A stretch of DNA of 64,000 nt from Candidatus Bathyarchaeota archaeon (GCA_963845275.1 CAWJRR010000008.1:3129-67128); one strand, 5' to 3'. Counted from the first letter of the stretch, positions 4,386 through 11,044 are shown. The notes: a model not told the origin generated them from the letters alone. A program made the numbers and translations.

Positions 4386-5162
4386 TTAAGGATTTAGTCG
4401 GAACTTGATATCCGGTGCAAAAAGCTGCACTATTGCACTCTGAGGCGAGAGAGGAAAGTGGAGACCGTCACGAGACAGAGCAATCCCACTCACATAGGCC
4501 GAATGCCAACCCACGGCTCTCCCTGCCACGCCGAGAACAATGCTGAACGTTAACTTCTCTGGAGTACTCCAGCGCATCATTCGGTACTCATTCGCAATGT
4601 TCAACTTTTCAAAATACCAGGCGCCTGACGGAGTCGGCAGGAACACAATCCTCTGATCAGGCAGGTTCTTGACGCCCTGCAGCTCATCCGAGAGTACGTA
4701 GCTAATGGTGTGAACGCCGTCATTCGTTTCGACAGCTAAAATAACTGAGGTCCCGTTGAAGAGGTCAGGGTCACAGTGGCACTGCTCCTTCAAAGCCCAG
4801 AAACCTATGCTCGCGTTCATCAGCTCAGTCAATCGGGCACCGTCCAGGGTTTGAGATATGCCTGCGTAGGCCCATCGCGATTGTACTCCGCTTTGGAACA
4901 CTCTCAACTCAAGAGCAGACTTACCTTGCAAACTCACCTTGCTAACTCCGACACTATCGCTCGGTCCTTTGACTGCTTCAAGAGTCCATACCACGAGCCT
5001 AGCACCGTCAGGGCCAGTAACCCATAGGTTGAAGTTGGGATCTAAGATTGCGGGCGGCCCTGTGTATGTGCCTTGAAGGTTCAGGAAAGCAAAAGCCGCG
5101 GCAATAATCAGGATTGCTACGGAGATTGGCGCGAAGTAGCGTTTCACTTGCTTTGACTTCAA
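4386..5162 (-). CDS. Hypothetical N-terminally anchored extracytoplasmic protein (last gene of the five-gene operon)
   Basis: The listed ORF 4386-5312 overlaps the upstream gene. A TTG at 5162-5160 overlaps the upstream stop (5161-5159) and is followed by KSKQVKRYFAPISVAILIIAAAFAF (a TM anchor). Confidence 0.5.
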   Translation of the reverse strand: MKSKQVKRYFAPISVAILIIAAAFAFLNLQGTYTGPPAILDPNFNLWVTGPDGARLVVWTLEAVKGPSDSVGVSKVSLQGKSALELRVFQSGVQSRWAYAGISQTLDGARLTELMNASIGFWALKEQCHCDPDLFNGTSVILAVETNDGVHTISYVLSDELQGVKNLPDQRIVFLPTPSGAWYFEKLNIANEYRMMRWSTPEKLTFSIVLGVAGRAVGWHSAYVSGIALSRDGLHFPLSPQSAIVQLFAPDIKFRLNP

Positions 5163-6418
5163 CCAGGTCGCCTCGATTTCATGGACGAGCGGGGTCTTGA
5201 CTCTGCGCTGTACCAGAGGAGGAGAGAGACGAGCATGAGAGGCATCCAGTAAATTACGTAGCTCGTGAGCGCTCTGAAGGAAAACCAGAGAATGATTCCT
5301 GGAAAGATCCACAGCATGTATCGGAGCTTATCGAAGTAGATGTAATAATTGCCAACGAGCACGATCAACACGCCAATTGCTAAAATTGAGTAAAACACTC
5401 TACCAACACTGATGAGTCCGACCTGGGAGAGAACTGCTGGACCCTGGCTGAGAATAACCAAGTCCGACGTGATTGGCGTAATGACATTCCTGAACCAGTC
5501 AGCTGGGTTGGCATAAGCGAACGGCAAGTTCACGAGCAGGAAAAGCCCGGCAGCTGGACCAAAGAAGGAAGCGATTCTGCGGAGCTTGATTCGCCAGTCC
5601 CCGGGGGTAACGCGAATGAGGTAGATTATGAGGAAAGGCGCTAGAAGCCAAGGTGGCTGCTTGAACGCGCATGCGATACCGTAGAAGAACCCTGAAACCA
5701 CCTGCCGCTTATCCAGCGTGTAGGCCGCGCACATCAAGGGCAGAACCCAAAGCATGTCGGATACGCTCGAGGCGGTGAAATTAATCAGAAGATCTGCTCC
5801 AGCGAATAGTGGAAGGATCAGCATTGGCCTAAGGTTGACAGGCGCTTTCAAGTAAAGCAGTAGAATCGCAGCTACCTCGAATATGACGAGAACCCACCTC
5901 ATGTCCCTTAAGCCTGCTAACACGAATGGTACGAAGACTAAGAAGTGGAGCGACGGGTACTGGAATGTTGCTAAGTAGCCTCCGGTGGTCAAAGGAGTTA
6001 GATCGGACGGTTGCACGGCAAACATCGCGAGAGCCGGCGTCAGGTCATGCGTGTAAGGATTCAATCCCTTCGTAACGAGAATCGCCGCGTACTGACTAAA
6101 CGCCAACACATCCGTCCTGTATGATCCTCGATACGCGATCTCCGCAACCACATACACGCTCGTGATTATCGAGAGAAGAAGCGGGATCAGCGAGAAATCC
6201 TTGAACTTGAACACGGTCTTGGTAGGCATGAGTGATAATGCGATTATGAATAGTGAGACGCCGTACAACAACAAGGTTAGTACTGCGACTTCAGGGTGAA
6301 TGTCAGCCCTGCCGCGATTCCAATCCTGAAAACCCTCGTAGAGTGCAAACTGACCAACGAAAAGAAATGAGAGGCGTAAGATGAATGATTCGTATCGCAC
6401 TCGACTGAATGAGCTCAC
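5159..6418 (-). CDS. DUF2029/GT87-like polytopic glycosyltransferase-like membrane protein
   Basis: 419-aa ORF containing KGLNPYTHDL....FQYPSLHFLVF, which matches the G.N.Y ... F.YPP pattern of GT87/DUF2029. It has many TM helices. Confidence 0.6.
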   Translation of the reverse strand: MSSFSRVRYESFILRLSFLFVGQFALYEGFQDWNRGRADIHPEVAVLTLLLYGVSLFIIALSLMPTKTVFKFKDFSLIPLLLSIITSVYVVAEIAYRGSYRTDVLAFSQYAAILVTKGLNPYTHDLTPALAMFAVQPSDLTPLTTGGYLATFQYPSLHFLVFVPFVLAGLRDMRWVLVIFEVAAILLLYLKAPVNLRPMLILPLFAGADLLINFTASSVSDMLWVLPLMCAAYTLDKRQVVSGFFYGIACAFKQPPWLLAPFLIIYLIRVTPGDWRIKLRRIASFFGPAAGLFLLVNLPFAYANPADWFRNVITPITSDLVILSQGPAVLSQVGLISVGRVFYSILAIGVLIVLVGNYYIYFDKLRYMLWIFPGIILWFSFRALTSYVIYWMPLMLVSLLLWYSAESRPRSSMKSRRPG

Positions 6419-6433
6419 TTTTCTATTGCATCC

Positions 6434-7156
6434 TCACTTCCCAGTTCCATTGGTCCTGCCTCGACGCCGCCGTTTGATCTTGTAAACTAGAAATTCCAGA
6501 ATGGGAAAGTTGAGGAAGATTACGAGGACGAGCGCAACTGTCACCCAAGCTGCGACAACGATGCTCTCACTCCGACCAGGATGAAAGAAAGGTTGAGGAG
6601 ACATTACACGCCTGACTTGCTGAGACACGCCGTTCCCAACTATTATGTCTCGCCAGATCGTTCCACCGTTAGCTAAGTTATTGATCTCGAAGGTAGTCGT
6701 ACCGTTTCCACCCGACATCAACCAAACGTAGATCTGCGGCATCGAAAGATCCACGTCGAACACAACATCGGCGTACACTTCAGAATAGCGAAAGTCCAGA
6801 AGCCCCTTGTAGAAGCTCATCAGATCGCCGTGTCGGACAATAGTCTGATTGTACACCTGATCTTGCCATGGAAGCTTTCGGCCAACATCCAAAGCGTAGT
6901 CAATGTATTTTCCAGTAAACCAGCCACTTGCGAGAACAGTCCCAATCCTGATCCCGTTTGAGTTGGTGCCGTTCAAGTCGTCAAACAGAACCCGGCCCCA
7001 GTCTGATGTTGACTGGATGATGATCCGCATCGGCTCCGTCTCCTGCCATTCTGCTGGAAGCAGTTGGCCGGATACGGGTGAAACGCCGTTGCTAGCCGTG
7101 ATGAATGAGGCGGAGAGTAAGGTGAGTATGACGATTCCGACAAGTCGCCTCTGCAA
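6434..7156 (-). CDS. Secreted protein with C-terminal TM helix and Arg-rich tail (candidate sortase-type substrate)
   Basis: 240-aa ORF. Signal peptide is MQRRLVGIVILTLLSASFITASNG. C-terminus is IVVAAWVTVALVLVIFLNFPILEFLVYKIKRRRRGR. Confidence 0.55.
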   Translation of the reverse strand: MQRRLVGIVILTLLSASFITASNGVSPVSGQLLPAEWQETEPMRIIIQSTSDWGRVLFDDLNGTNSNGIRIGTVLASGWFTGKYIDYALDVGRKLPWQDQVYNQTIVRHGDLMSFYKGLLDFRYSEVYADVVFDVDLSMPQIYVWLMSGGNGTTTFEINNLANGGTIWRDIIVGNGVSQQVRRVMSPQPFFHPGRSESIVVAAWVTVALVLVIFLNFPILEFLVYKIKRRRRGRTNGTGK

Positions 7157-7157
7157 G

Positions 7158-8216
7158 TTAATGGCCTCCCGTCGACTTCACTTTTCTTCTCGCCTTGGGC
7201 GTCGATTCTTTCTTCGGCTTCTTTCCCTGACCAGCTCTGGGAGCTATTCTATCCTCAATCTCCAGTATTAACACTAGGAATACGACTATCCAGATTGGAA
7301 AGAGCACCTCACCGATCGCGTTATGAAACGCGTCAAGTTGTTGTCCGCTCGTTGCGTACACGTAGCCGTAGTATGAAATTGTGAAAATTCTTACCACGTT
7401 GAGTAGTATCGTGCCTGCGATTCCAACCGCGGCGTAAATGATCTTCCGCAGCAGGGGAGCTTGCAGCTTCGCTGCGATAACGATCATCACCACTGAGTAG
7501 ATCAGGATGCTCTGTACACCAACGCTGGGCCAGTAGACAACCAGTCGGTAGTAACCGTGCAAGCCATTAATTGTTAGGTGATTCGTGTATCCGTAAATGG
7601 GGAGACCGAACACTTTCGCTAAGAGCGCAACGCCTGCCACGATGAAGTTCGCCCAAAACTGTAATGGACCTAGCGACCCGTAGGGGAAGAAAGCGTCGAG
7701 CATGTAGAAAACCAACATTCCGAGTGAAAAGACGATTGGGGTAATTATACGACGAATCGTCCCCAGATCAAAGAGCACTGTCGTTAGGATGGTGAGGTAG
7801 ATGCTCATGGCAATGTAGTCGGTCGCCATCAGGAAACTGTTACTTACCTCACCTGACGCACCCAATGATTTGCCGACGGAGTAGATGAAATCTGTCACCT
7901 CTTGACCTAGGCCGACTTGAACAAAGTAGACGGTTGCCCCAAGTACGGTAAGTGCGACCGCAACCTTACGCATCCTGGTCCAATGAATCTTGCCATTCTT
8001 GAAATCTAACAGGTCGAAGCCGAGGAAGAACAATACGAAGAATAGGCCGCCTCTACCTAGCTTCCCGAACCCCGCCCAGCTTAGCTCGAAGGTTTGCGGA
8101 GCGACCATGAAGAGGAATAGGATTGGCACCGCGACCAGGATTAGGAGAACATCACGGCCGCTGATTCGCCGCAGACTCTTCACTAGGTCACTAGTTGTCT
8201 TCGGCAGGGGAGACAT
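7158..8216 (-). CDS. Exosortase/archaeosortase-family polytopic protein; Ser at the position where the catalytic Cys is expected
   Basis: 352-aa ORF with about eight TM helices. VYWPSVGVQSILIY lines up with the family's ..CSG..S motif, and it is followed by LLNVVRIFTISYYG (conserved Arg) and FHNAIGEVLFPIW (conserved His). Confidence 0.6.
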   Translation of the reverse strand: MSPLPKTTSDLVKSLRRISGRDVLLILVAVPILFLFMVAPQTFELSWAGFGKLGRGGLFFVLFFLGFDLLDFKNGKIHWTRMRKVAVALTVLGATVYFVQVGLGQEVTDFIYSVGKSLGASGEVSNSFLMATDYIAMSIYLTILTTVLFDLGTIRRIITPIVFSLGMLVFYMLDAFFPYGSLGPLQFWANFIVAGVALLAKVFGLPIYGYTNHLTINGLHGYYRLVVYWPSVGVQSILIYSVVMIVIAAKLQAPLLRKIIYAAVGIAGTILLNVVRIFTISYYGYVYATSGQQLDAFHNAIGEVLFPIWIVVFLVLILEIEDRIAPRAGQGKKPKKESTPKARRKVKSTGGH

Positions 8217-8226
8217 TCACAGTTAC

Positions 8227-8973
8227 CTAGAAGACACGATCTTTTGGATAGACCTCTATTCCTGATGGGCCTATTTGATACGGACGAAGTTGAGTATCAT
8301 GCCCAATTCCCCTCATCTTCTCCACCTGTAACGCACGTATCACATTCCCCTCATGCACCATCGTATGCAACAGGACTACGCCCTGAGACAGGTACTCCTC
8401 AATCTGAAACCGCCTCGCTAGCTCCGATGTCCGCAACTCACTCGTGACGAGGCAGGAGCATCCCGTTGACTCCAGCGCATCGAAGAAGAGGAGTAAAGAT
8501 CGCCTACGCTTCGGCTCCTCCGGGTAACGCAGCATTAGGGAAGTGATCGGGTCAACGGCTATTCGTTGAATGTCTTCCTCCGTCGCGATCCGTCGAATCG
8601 TTCGAGCTAACGAGCCTAATGTTAATTCAGGAAGAACTAGCTCAACCCCCTTCTCAGACGACACCCGAGTATCAACCTTAGGTCCCGGCCTCTTCAACGG
8701 TGTCGCATCAATCAACGTAAGCGTTCCATCATGCTCTAGGGCTTCAAGGTTCCAGTTGAAGCCAGACAAGTCGCCTTTAACCCTCTCAGGCTTCTCATCA
8801 AGAGAAACATACAAGCCCGATTGACCGGACTTTGCTCCATTCGCTAAGAATTGCATTGCAAAAGTTGTCTTCCCCGAGCCCGGACTTCCCACGACCAGGA
8901 TGGTTCTACCCTTAGGCAAGCCCCCGTGCAATATCTCGTCGAGTCCTTTGATTCCGGTAGGAGTCTGCTCCAA
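8227..8973 (-). CDS. KaiC/RecA-superfamily single-domain ATPase
   Basis: 248-aa ORF. It has GIKGLDEILHGGLPKGRTILVVGSPGSGKTTFAMQFL (Walker A) and a hydrophobic strand plus acidic Walker B-like segment (IQRIAVDPITS). Confidence 0.8.
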   Translation of the reverse strand: MEQTPTGIKGLDEILHGGLPKGRTILVVGSPGSGKTTFAMQFLANGAKSGQSGLYVSLDEKPERVKGDLSGFNWNLEALEHDGTLTLIDATPLKRPGPKVDTRVSSEKGVELVLPELTLGSLARTIRRIATEEDIQRIAVDPITSLMLRYPEEPKRRRSLLLFFDALESTGCSCLVTSELRTSELARRFQIEEYLSQGVVLLHTMVHEGNVIRALQVEKMRGIGHDTQLRPYQIGPSGIEVYPKDRVF

Positions 8974-9185: not shown

Positions 9186-9857
9186 ATGAGCAGACGAATG
9201 AGCTTGACTGTTGGCTTGTTCGCAGTTTTAGTTCTACTAGCGAGTTGGTTCACCGTTCCAGCCTTCGCGACCTTCTGCCAGATCAGTAGTATATCGTACA
9301 ATTATCCTCGGCAGGTCTTGCCGAGCCAGAGTTTCACCACGACAGTTACTGTGAGCGGTGTTTGTGCTCCTGACGACGCTAACTACTACTCGGTCAGAAC
9401 TGATTTGAACGACATTTCAGGCCTCGTCCTATCGGCCGTATCCGTCCCGATCGGATTCAGCCAGGGCCAGAACTGGACAGTCAACGCAGAGAACCAACTT
9501 ACTGCACCAACCAGTTCCGCCCCATGGCAGATTCAGTTCGCCGTGTACATTTTCGCTGCCGTCGGCAGCGGAGGGACGCTAGATTCAGCAACATTCAAAC
9601 CAGTAACCATACAAGTGGGAACAACACAACCAGCTCAAACTACCACGTCAATCAACCTCACCACAACTCAGACAGAAGCCCCTCCCGTCATGATCTCATC
9701 AACCGCACTAACGTCGAGCACAGCCCTGAACCAAACCACCGAAACCGCACAACCGTTTCTTGATGTCTACAGAGGGGTGGCTGCAGTTCTGGTTCTCATT
9801 CTTCTGGTAATGGTGGTAGTTCTCGTTAAGCAGAGGCAGAACAGGCGTGGCGCATGA
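9186..9857 (+). CDS. Secreted Thr-rich protein with C-terminal TM helix and basic tail
   Basis: 223-aa ORF with a signal peptide (LFAVLVLLASWFTVPAFA), a Thr/Ser-rich linker, and C-terminus GVAAVLVLILLVMVVVLVKQRQNRRGA. Confidence 0.55.
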   Translation: MSRRMSLTVGLFAVLVLLASWFTVPAFATFCQISSISYNYPRQVLPSQSFTTTVTVSGVCAPDDANYYSVRTDLNDISGLVLSAVSVPIGFSQGQNWTVNAENQLTAPTSSAPWQIQFAVYIFAAVGSGGTLDSATFKPVTIQVGTTQPAQTTTSINLTTTQTEAPPVMISSTALTSSTALNQTTETAQPFLDVYRGVAAVLVLILLVMVVVLVKQRQNRRGA

Positions 9858-9964: not shown

Positions 9965-11044
9965 ATGCGAAATTATCTGTTTCTGCAAGCCGCGTTAATC
10001 GTGCTTGTGTTGGGCGGAGGGTTCTGTTTTGCATTATCAACGGTTAGCCTAGTGTATGCATATCCGTACAGTTGGTGGGGATCCAGCTGGGGCTGTCCCT
10101 ACTCGTATTATTACTCATGGTTTTGCCCCTACTATAGTTACTATTACCCTTACTACTATGGATATTATTCGAACCCATATTCGTATGGTTACTCATATTA
10201 CACGCAGCCCACTCAAGTTCAATTATCGGTGAACGTTAACCCGTCGAGTCTACAAAGCGCTGTCACTGTCACTGGGGCAGGATCCTATAACCAAGGAGGC
10301 TCAGCTACTTTTTCAACCTCCCAGAACGTCATTCAGGTTTCTCAGAACACAAGATACGTTTTCTCGAATTGGGCAGGCGACTACTCCGGCCAAGGCTTGA
10401 ATGGTACAGTAACCATGAATTCCGCCAAGGCAGTCACTGCCGTTTACCAAATACAATACTACCTCACAGTCAACTCGCCATCGAACGTCCCATCAATTCT
10501 GGGAAGCGGATGGTACAATGCAAATGATTCAGCTACGCTCACCGTGCCGTCCCAAATCGTGGGAGATACAGAGAGCAGACTCGTGTTCAACGGCTGGAAC
10601 GTTGATGGGACTAATGGTCCGACAAGCTCTACACTGACCGTTCGGATGAGCGCTCCTCACACCGTCACGGCACAATACAAACAGCAGTACTACCTAACTG
10701 TCACGAGCGATCAAGGCCCCACGTCCGGAACAGGATGGTATGATGCCGGCGCTCAAGCTCAGATCTCAGCCTCCACACCTCCAAGTCCAGCCTACGGAAT
10801 CAGTATGTTCTTCAACGGTTGGAACGGCACCGTGAATTCGCCATCAAACCAATCGACAACCGTCCTCATGGACGGACCTAAATCAGTGACCGCGACCTGG
10901 CGAGCTGACGCGACCGTCCTCTACGCAACCATAGCAGCAGTCATAGCGGTGATCGCAGTTGCAACATACCTCATGGTAACGCGCCGGAAACAAACAACAA
11001 ACAATGTGGCAGACACCCCAGGTCCCCGCGCCGGCAAAAGTTGA
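9965..11044 (+). CDS. Secreted protein with a Tyr-rich low-complexity segment, four YYLTV-type repeat domains and a C-terminal TM anchor
   Basis: 359-aa ORF. A signal peptide is followed by YPYSWWGSSWGCPYSYYYSWFCPYYSYYYPYYYGYYSNPYSYGYSYY. About 65-aa repeats then end in (A)VTAVYQIQYYLTV / VTAQYKQQYYLTV, resembling the divergent InlB B-repeat type. The C-terminus carries a TM helix plus RRK. Confidence 0.6.
   Translation: MRNYLFLQAALIVLVLGGGFCFALSTVSLVYAYPYSWWGSSWGCPYSYYYSWFCPYYSYYYPYYYGYYSNPYSYGYSYYTQPTQVQLSVNVNPSSLQSAVTVTGAGSYNQGGSATFSTSQNVIQVSQNTRYVFSNWAGDYSGQGLNGTVTMNSAKAVTAVYQIQYYLTVNSPSNVPSILGSGWYNANDSATLTVPSQIVGDTESRLVFNGWNVDGTNGPTSSTLTVRMSAPHTVTAQYKQQYYLTVTSDQGPTSGTGWYDAGAQAQISASTPPSPAYGISMFFNGWNGTVNSPSNQSTTVLMDGPKSVTATWRADATVLYATIAAVIAVIAVATYLMVTRRKQTTNNVADTPGPRAGKS

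Follow-up and report, generated by a model that had tools for sequence, protein, structure and literature searches.

A serine at the catalytic-cysteine position of a thaumarchaeosortase-like archaeosortase homolog from soil and peat Bathyarchaeia

The stretch of DNA analyzed here (the window, 64,000 nucleotides from a Candidatus Bathyarchaeota archaeon, GCA_963845275.1 CAWJRR010000008.1:3129-67128) carries a run of five tightly packed genes on the same strand, which encode, in order, a KaiC-like ATPase, a polytopic archaeosortase homolog of 352 aa, a secreted or anchored protein (p240), a GT87-like glycosyltransferase and a membrane-anchored protein (p308) whose true start probably lies later than that of its open reading frame (ORF). 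Genes for two surface proteins lie on the opposite strand (Table 1). The subject of this analysis is the second gene of the run and, within it, a single codon.

Table 1. Features of the sortase locus, with the small cysteine-type sortase of the same genome for comparison. Coordinates count from the first letter of the window unless a contig is named.
Feature	Coordinates	Strand	Basis or remark
Serine-type archaeosortase homolog (thaumarchaeosortase-like), polytopic membrane protein, 352 aa	7158..8216	-	ORF, profile matches and AlphaFold2 model
Codon AGC, Ser231, motif W-P-S-V-G-V-Q-S (YWPSVGVQS), catalytic-Cys column	7524..7526	-	Direct reading and alignments
Codon AGA, Arg276, motif L-N-V-V-R-I-F (LLNVVRIF), conserved family Arg	7389..7391	-	Direct reading and alignments
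Codon CAT, His298, motif F-H-N-x-I-G-E (AFHNAIGE), conserved family His	7323..7325	-	Direct reading and alignments
KaiC-like single-domain ATPase	8227..8973	-	PF06745 KaiC, 197 bits; 10 nt upstream of the sortase
p240, secreted/anchored protein of 240 aa, directly downstream of the sortase	6434..7156	-	ORF, conserved synteny
Polytopic GT87/GT-C-like glycosyltransferase, 419 aa	5159..6418	-	PF09594 GT87, 19.1 bits, sub-threshold
p308, ORF of 308 aa that ends the conserved cluster and has a membrane anchor at its N-terminus	4386..5312	-	ORF
Thr/Ser-rich surface protein, 223 aa, tripartite tail AQPFLDVYRG, TM helix, KQRQNRRGA	9186..9857	+	Divergent from the operon
Surface protein, 359 aa, B-repeat-like units, 'TWRAD', TM helix, RRK tail	9965..11044	+	Several loci of the clade have homologs upstream of the sortase
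Small Cys-type archaeosortase of the same genome, 177 aa, Cys76	G000 C6 (L002:1294-1827)		TIGR04178, 41-43 bits

The 352-aa protein belongs to the exosortase/archaeosortase superfamily, as it scores above the cut-offs of both PF09721 Exosortase_EpsH (28.3 bits; cut-off 25.7) and TIGR04178 exo_archaeo (47.1 bits; cut-off 23), its residues 227-320 covering positions 3-94 of the latter profile. Its best full-length curated model is the thaumarchaeosortase model TIGR04297, which it matches over profile positions 5-295 of 307 with 147.6 bits (E 5e-43), short of the cut-off of 250. A search of 5.8 billion proteins returned 199 homologs; the best 120 of these 199 are 57-94% identical to the query, and many of the 120 carry the JGI label 'thaumarchaeosortase' or stem from Candidatus Bathyarchaeia metagenome-assembled genomes (MAGs). 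The sortase family is small, since an exhaustive profile search over 1.84 billion cluster representatives (50% identity) found only 267 clusters at E <= 1e-3. Related loci of the window's clade were contributed by MAGs from SPRUCE peat, from Danish soil and from other sources. One further record, L054 (DATKOK010000106.1), is titled 'Candidatus Methylomirabilota bacterium' and encodes an 81%-identical sortase copy together with KaiC-like, p240 and GT87-like genes; this contig almost certainly belongs to Bathyarchaeia and ended up in a bacterial MAG through mis-binning.

Exosortases and archaeosortases are regarded as cysteine transpeptidases, and the superfamily normally keeps its Cys nucleophile along with a downstream Arg and His. 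The 352-aa protein retains the last two as R276 and H298, and has Ser231 in place of the first. The initial annotation had proposed this substitution from an alignment by eye; three independent kinds of alignment now place Ser231 in the catalytic-Cys column. In the curated TIGR04178 profile, position 7 corresponds both to Ser231 and to Cys76 of the small Cys-type sortase encoded elsewhere in the same genome, whose residues 70-154 cover positions 1-90. Pairwise BLASTP of these two proteins gave no informative alignment, and profile methods were used instead. Profile-profile alignment (hhalign) of the Ser231 family against six small Cys sortases from the window genome and related genomes (probability 73%, E 3e-5) pairs VVYWPSVGVQS with EIQRMCTGVQV, LLNVVRIF with LANIGRIA and AFHNAIGEV with LVHYPTGLI, thereby matching R276 with Arg and H298 with His, so that the two motifs picked out earlier as Arg-like and His-like have direct counterparts in Cys-type enzymes. 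Within the family itself, 94 relatives read WPC[AS]G where the 352-aa protein reads WPSVG, and those with W-P-C-A-G-V include other Bathyarchaeia, some from the window genome's own GTDB order. Across 246 aligned family sequences, the column of Ser231 holds Ser in 126 and Cys in 94, while the Arg276 column is Arg in 230/230 and the His298 column is His in 224/226. Ser231 thus occupies the catalytic-Cys column, which the agreement of the curated-profile, profile-profile and in-family alignments confirms. Direct reading likewise bears out that its codon is AGC on the complementary strand. Could a genuine catalytic Cys reside elsewhere in the protein? This is excluded, because the 352-aa protein contains no cysteine at all; nor is there a clade-conserved Cys column among its 120 close homologs, 77 of which lack Cys altogether.

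A serine at this position is not peculiar to the window. When 401 genomes of the phylum were searched with TIGR04297, 58 genomes gave matches above the cut-off, at 370-658 bits, and all matches above 250 bits came from three families that lie in the same phylum but outside the window genome's class, which contributed none; we take these three families to be Nitrososphaeria, the class of the ammonia-oxidizing archaea. On this model, Bathyarchaeia genes, that of the window among them, reach 30-166 bits. The canonical thaumarchaeosortase genes extracted from the search read F-W-P-S-A-G-V-H-S in 46/46 cases. Ser at the catalytic-Cys column is the normal state of an already catalogued family, the thaumarchaeosortases, whose database description presumably mentions it; none of the papers searched mentions thaumarchaeosortase or TIGR04297. 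Thaumarchaeosortases resemble the 352-aa protein in length, in architecture, in the motif W-P-S-x-G-V-x-S and in having the identical Arg and His, and on the family tree they share a half with the window's clade. They differ in host (Nitrososphaeria rather than Bathyarchaeia), in score, in the codon class of their serine (TCN rather than AGY) and in gene context, as no operon of KaiC-like, p240 and GT87-like genes was seen within ~1.5 kb of the canonical genes, nor within ~5 kb for two of them (L103 and L104). By sequence comparison, the window's clade is a divergent, uncatalogued Bathyarchaeia branch of this known Ser-type sortase group.

Three groups of cysteine enzymes provide further points of reference. 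The Cys-type Bathyarchaeia relatives, some of them from the same GTDB order, are 31-41% identical to the 352-aa protein and alignable end to end; they share its Arg, His and framework residues, and some have KaiC-like or GT87-like neighbors, but they retain the cysteine (TGY) in W-P-C-A-G-V where the window's gene encodes serine. The small Cys-type sortase of the window genome is half as long, and its C-T-G-V-Q aligns with S-V-G-V-Q of the 352-aa protein. Its best model is heimdallarchaeosortase, at a sub-threshold 45 bits (cut-off 130). Of 8 related genomes, 6 encode it alongside the Ser form, and the two genes are often separated by 14-15 kb. More remote is ArtA of Haloferax volcanii (MEROPS C106), which shares the TIGR04178 superfamily signature and is a polytopic membrane enzyme; its targets are C-terminal tripartite signals. 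It has a Cys nucleophile and a known signal, PGF-CTERM, and its similarity to the 352-aa protein is only distant; its own model, TIGR04125, does not match the latter. In ArtA, Cys173, Arg214 and Arg253 are critical for C-terminal processing (PMC9263693; PMC6098224).

An AlphaFold2 model of the 352-aa protein, built from a 20-sequence alignment (pLDDT 75.8, pTM 0.69), comprises ~9 long helices, which makes it polytopic, and a short three-stranded sheet (residues 207-226) just before Ser231. In this model Ser231 caps helix 232-250 at its N-terminus, helix 255-286 contains Arg276 and helix 291-324 contains His298. Neither a PDB sequence search nor a Foldseek comparison of the model with PDB structures returned a solved homolog. 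Whether orthologs in related genomes also have Ser, a check suggested at the outset, is answered by the complete invariance of all three residues: Ser231, Arg276 and His298 are present in 121/121 clade sequences, namely the 352-aa protein and the best 120 of its 199 homologs. On a broader scale, among 179 full-length Ser-type and Cys-type members, D174, P178, Q186, W229, G233, S236, G265, T269, N273, R276, H298, G302 and W309 are conserved to at least 93%, and the nucleophile itself is the sole systematic difference between the two types. A single fragment of 199 aa from the window's clade (P0126) reads W-P-N-V-G-V-Q-S, with Asn at the nucleophile column; its AAY codon is one step off AGY, and it could be an error or a decaying copy.

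How did the serine arise? A maximum-likelihood protein tree of 155 near-full-length members, calculated with the nucleophile column left out, splits into two halves (SH-aLRT 95). One is mostly Cys with several Ser lineages; the other contains the window's clade (26 rows, support 100) and a Nitrososphaeria-centered Ser clade (37 rows, support 99), and its unresolved base holds Cys-type genes, some from the window genome's own order. Parsimony counts eight Cys/Ser changes on this tree, and well-supported branches force at least two. The protein tree alone was set aside as an argument for an independent serine origin, given the unresolved base of the second half and an AU test that does not reject one clade for all 71 Ser forms of that half.

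The codons are more telling. At column 231, canonical Nitrososphaeria genes use TCN in 46/46 cases (TCT 29, TCA 12, TCG 3, TCC 2), loci of the window's clade use AGY in 15/15 (AGC 12, AGT 3) and Cys relatives use TGY in 22/22. TCN is also found in the P0124, P0130, P0133, P0137, P0144 and P0162 loci, and AGC in P0122 and in five Ser lineages of the mostly-Cys half (P0165, P0183, P0185, P0193 and P0201). That AGC lies one base away from the Cys codon TGC, as had been pointed out from the sequence, proves informative, since the Cys relatives use TGY and the window's clade only AGY. TGY is one substitution away from AGY and likewise from TCY, whereas AGY and TCN are two substitutions apart, which underlies the classic 'two serines' argument that the two serine codon sets can mark separate origins. 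A control is provided by Ser236, a second invariant serine five codons downstream, which is encoded by AGY in 94/94 loci, including all 46 from Nitrososphaeria. The codon class at a constrained serine therefore appears stable over the depth of the family, and codon bias was rejected as the source of the TCN/AGY split, as Nitrososphaeria use AGY at Ser236 throughout. Because the codon classes at column 231 are partitioned while Ser236 is uniform, the two serine classes are best read as separate one-step derivatives of cysteine. In the window's clade, a TGY cysteine codon would have become AGY by one T-to-A change; in Nitrososphaeria, a separate G-to-C change would have produced TCN. On this codon evidence, the AGY serine of the window's clade probably arose independently of the serine of the ammonia oxidizers.

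Several other explanations of the serine have to be weighed against an active, lineage-fixed enzyme. As AGC is a single base off TGC, one might have suspected an error of sequencing or assembly, or a TGC-to-AGC mutation that is recent and private to this MAG, but Ser recurs in 120 independent homologs drawn from many metagenomes, and AGY in 14 independent genome loci of the clade. Invariance in 121/121 sequences at 57-94% identity means that Ser231 is not a product of chance or base calling, and this explanation was rejected, its residual probability being negligible. It is also conceivable that the loss of the cysteine ended catalysis, and that the protein was kept for a structural or regulatory role in the membrane, as a partner of the KaiC-like ATPase and p240. 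Ser-type members are known from sequence alone, and the partner genes are tightly syntenic, both of which leave room for such a pseudo-enzyme. Yet pseudo-enzymes usually lose their remaining catalytic residues, and here Ser231, Arg276 and His298 are invariant within the clade, while the Arg, the His and the framework are 93-100% conserved across the 179 Ser-type and Cys-type relatives. Furthermore, the serine codon varies synonymously (AGC/AGT in the clade; TCT/TCA/TCC/TCG in Nitrososphaeria) under a constant residue, a sign of purifying selection on Ser itself. We thus regard an inactive scaffold as improbable; because the Arg, the His and the framework are conserved in both types, an active Ser enzyme is favored. 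Among the readings offered by the initial annotation, that of a lineage-specific subfamily which already possessed Ser is upheld by the best-matching model, by the 46/46 canonical members with Ser and by the JGI labels; that of a Ser-nucleophile variant is compatible with it and, we infer from the same conservation, preferable to the dead scaffold. Taken together, with a probability of roughly 0.8, the 352-aa protein would be a functional, lineage-fixed serine-type exosortase/archaeosortase from a Bathyarchaeia clade of soil and peat that most resembles the thaumarchaeosortases of ammonia oxidizers.

A separate issue is whether this serine shares its origin with that of the ammonia oxidizers. 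Serine may have arisen once, in the common ancestor of the window's clade and Nitrososphaeria, or have been passed on by gene transfer, with the codon class switching between TCN and AGY at a later time. The AU test does not reject a single clade of the 71 Ser forms (p 0.685), and the constrained tree is in fact 21 log-likelihood units higher; the WPS.GV motif is alike in both clades; and codon-set switches at conserved serines, via Thr or Cys intermediates, are documented as a matter of general knowledge. However, the neighboring Ser236 never changed class in 94 loci over the same evolutionary depth, column 231 is strictly partitioned (46/46 TCN against 15/15 AGY), and the second half has Cys (TGY) forms from the window genome's own order branching off near its base. 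A class switch would, in addition, most plausibly have passed through Cys, which would again make the AGY serine a derivative of cysteine. A single origin therefore seems unlikely to us, though it deserves to be taken seriously, and separate origins remain the preferred reading. Extended to the whole family, this reading would have the Cys-to-Ser nucleophile exchange occur at least three separate times, each leaving its codon fingerprint (TCN in the Nitrososphaeria-associated lineages; AGY in the window's clade and several Bathyarchaeia-like lineages) with the other framework residues fixed, perhaps as an adaptation of an extracytoplasmic active site to oxidizing habitats. We lean toward this extended scenario, but only slightly.

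The genes around the sortase are conserved with it. The order of sortase, p240, GT87-like gene and p308 recurs as far as the contigs reach, with p240 in 14/14 related loci, the GT87-like gene in 13 and p308 in 11. The KaiC-like gene adjoins the sortase in six clade loci and also in the P0122, P0130 and P0133 loci, and its product is ~60-95% identical between loci (window, L089, L090, L091 and L099). Outside the clade, a GT87-like gene occurs in the P0124 locus and in the Cys-type locus L097, and a KaiC-like gene near the Cys-type L099. The presence of such neighbors in other subclades and near two Cys-type relatives indicates that the KaiC/GT87 association predates the nucleophile switch. To our knowledge, no pairing of a sortase with KaiC has been described. 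In one of these loci (L090, the P0133 locus), a TCN-type Ser sortase with an overlapping upstream KaiC-like gene lies among genes for CdvA, CetZ-tubulin, Alba and actin-family proteins, on an archaeal contig.

Which proteins might such an enzyme act on? p240 consists of a signal peptide, a conserved domain of ~170 aa, the motif RRVMSPQPFFxPGRxES, a TM helix (LNFPxLE) and a basic tail; it matches no Pfam or NCBIfam model, and its C-terminal region is conserved in 13/13 loci that cover it. Judging from its sequence and position, p240 is the leading candidate for a substrate or partner dedicated to the sortase, the alternative being the surface proteins with PEF-like tails. A genome-wide tail scan found ~11 of the latter (VPEF, TM helix, basic tail), together with three IPGFPVE tails and at least six surface proteins in which B-repeat-like '..[AT]W[RY]xDY..' units are followed by a TM helix and an Arg-rich tail ('WRxDY'-TM-RRR), a recurrent class without a curated model to which the 359-aa protein of the window belongs. 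For comparison, the cognate substrates of the thaumarchaeosortases would, according to database curation, be the PEFG-CTERM proteins (TIGR04296). Ten tails from the genome were scored with NCBIfam models. The PEF-like tails remained sub-threshold, with one at 16.8 bits against TIGR04296, whose cut-off is 25, and three at 12.6-17.1 bits against TIGR03024, whose cut-off is 23. Of the IPGFPVE tails, which belong to three ORFs on another contig (G000 C12), two were scanned and both exceeded the cut-off of the Loki-CTERM model NF033507 (27.1 and 26.5 bits; cut-off 19.9). Loki-CTERM tails and a heimdallarchaeosortase-like small Cys sortase in one genome suggest an Asgard-like sorting pair outside the Asgard archaea. 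In two relatives, the genes immediately upstream of the KaiC-sortase pair encode large PEF-tailed proteins, and one or more PEF-tailed proteins adjoin the small Cys sortase in the window genome. Two other lines of assignment were given up. 'QPF[FL]', shared by p240 and the 223-aa protein, was rejected as a general sorting motif, as these are the only two such tripartite tails in the genome and the ortholog of the 223-aa protein is found only in the nearest relative (L066). The substrates could not be divided between the two sortases by co-occurrence either, with both enzymes present in 6/8 related genomes. An ORF outside the window, at ~99.3-100.8 kb of another contig (G000 C3), terminates in ~50 consecutive Phe residues that correspond to a long poly-T tract, probably an assembly artefact.

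By homology to ArtA, the enzyme would be embedded in the membrane, its active site positioned at the outer side, where it would recognize a C-terminal tripartite signal (motif, TM helix and basic tail) on a secreted protein. Ser231, helped by His298 and Arg276, would then attack the signal to form an acyl-enzyme ester rather than a thioester, with the membrane-anchor signal cleaved off, and transfer to water, or to an acceptor of lipid or glycan nature, would resolve the ester. By this analogy, the most likely function is that of a Ser-His-Arg membrane transpeptidase or protease for surface proteins.

We know of no member of this superfamily other than Haloferax ArtA that has been tested, and of no structure of the fold. 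Against this background, close relatives that differ only in Ser or Cys as the nucleophile, with the same Arg, His and framework, constitute matched natural pairs for probing the catalysis of cleavage and anchoring. They further suggest that 'Cys-Arg-His' is too narrow a rule for annotation, and the Bathyarchaeia clade, which falls below the thaumarchaeosortase cut-off, would need a model of its own. Serine forms were already catalogued in the ammonia-oxidizing archaea; what appears to be new here is the codon evidence for a separate serine origin, with the split among TCN, AGY and TGY serving as a simple, checkable marker of repeated switching. That a KaiC-like ATPase and a GT87-like glycosyltransferase recur alongside the sortase points to a regulated module of surface-protein maturation in an uncultured, globally abundant archaeal class. 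If the repeated exchange of Cys for Ser is true, thioester and ester chemistry would be interchangeable within the exosortase/archaeosortase fold, a natural 'tale of two serines'.
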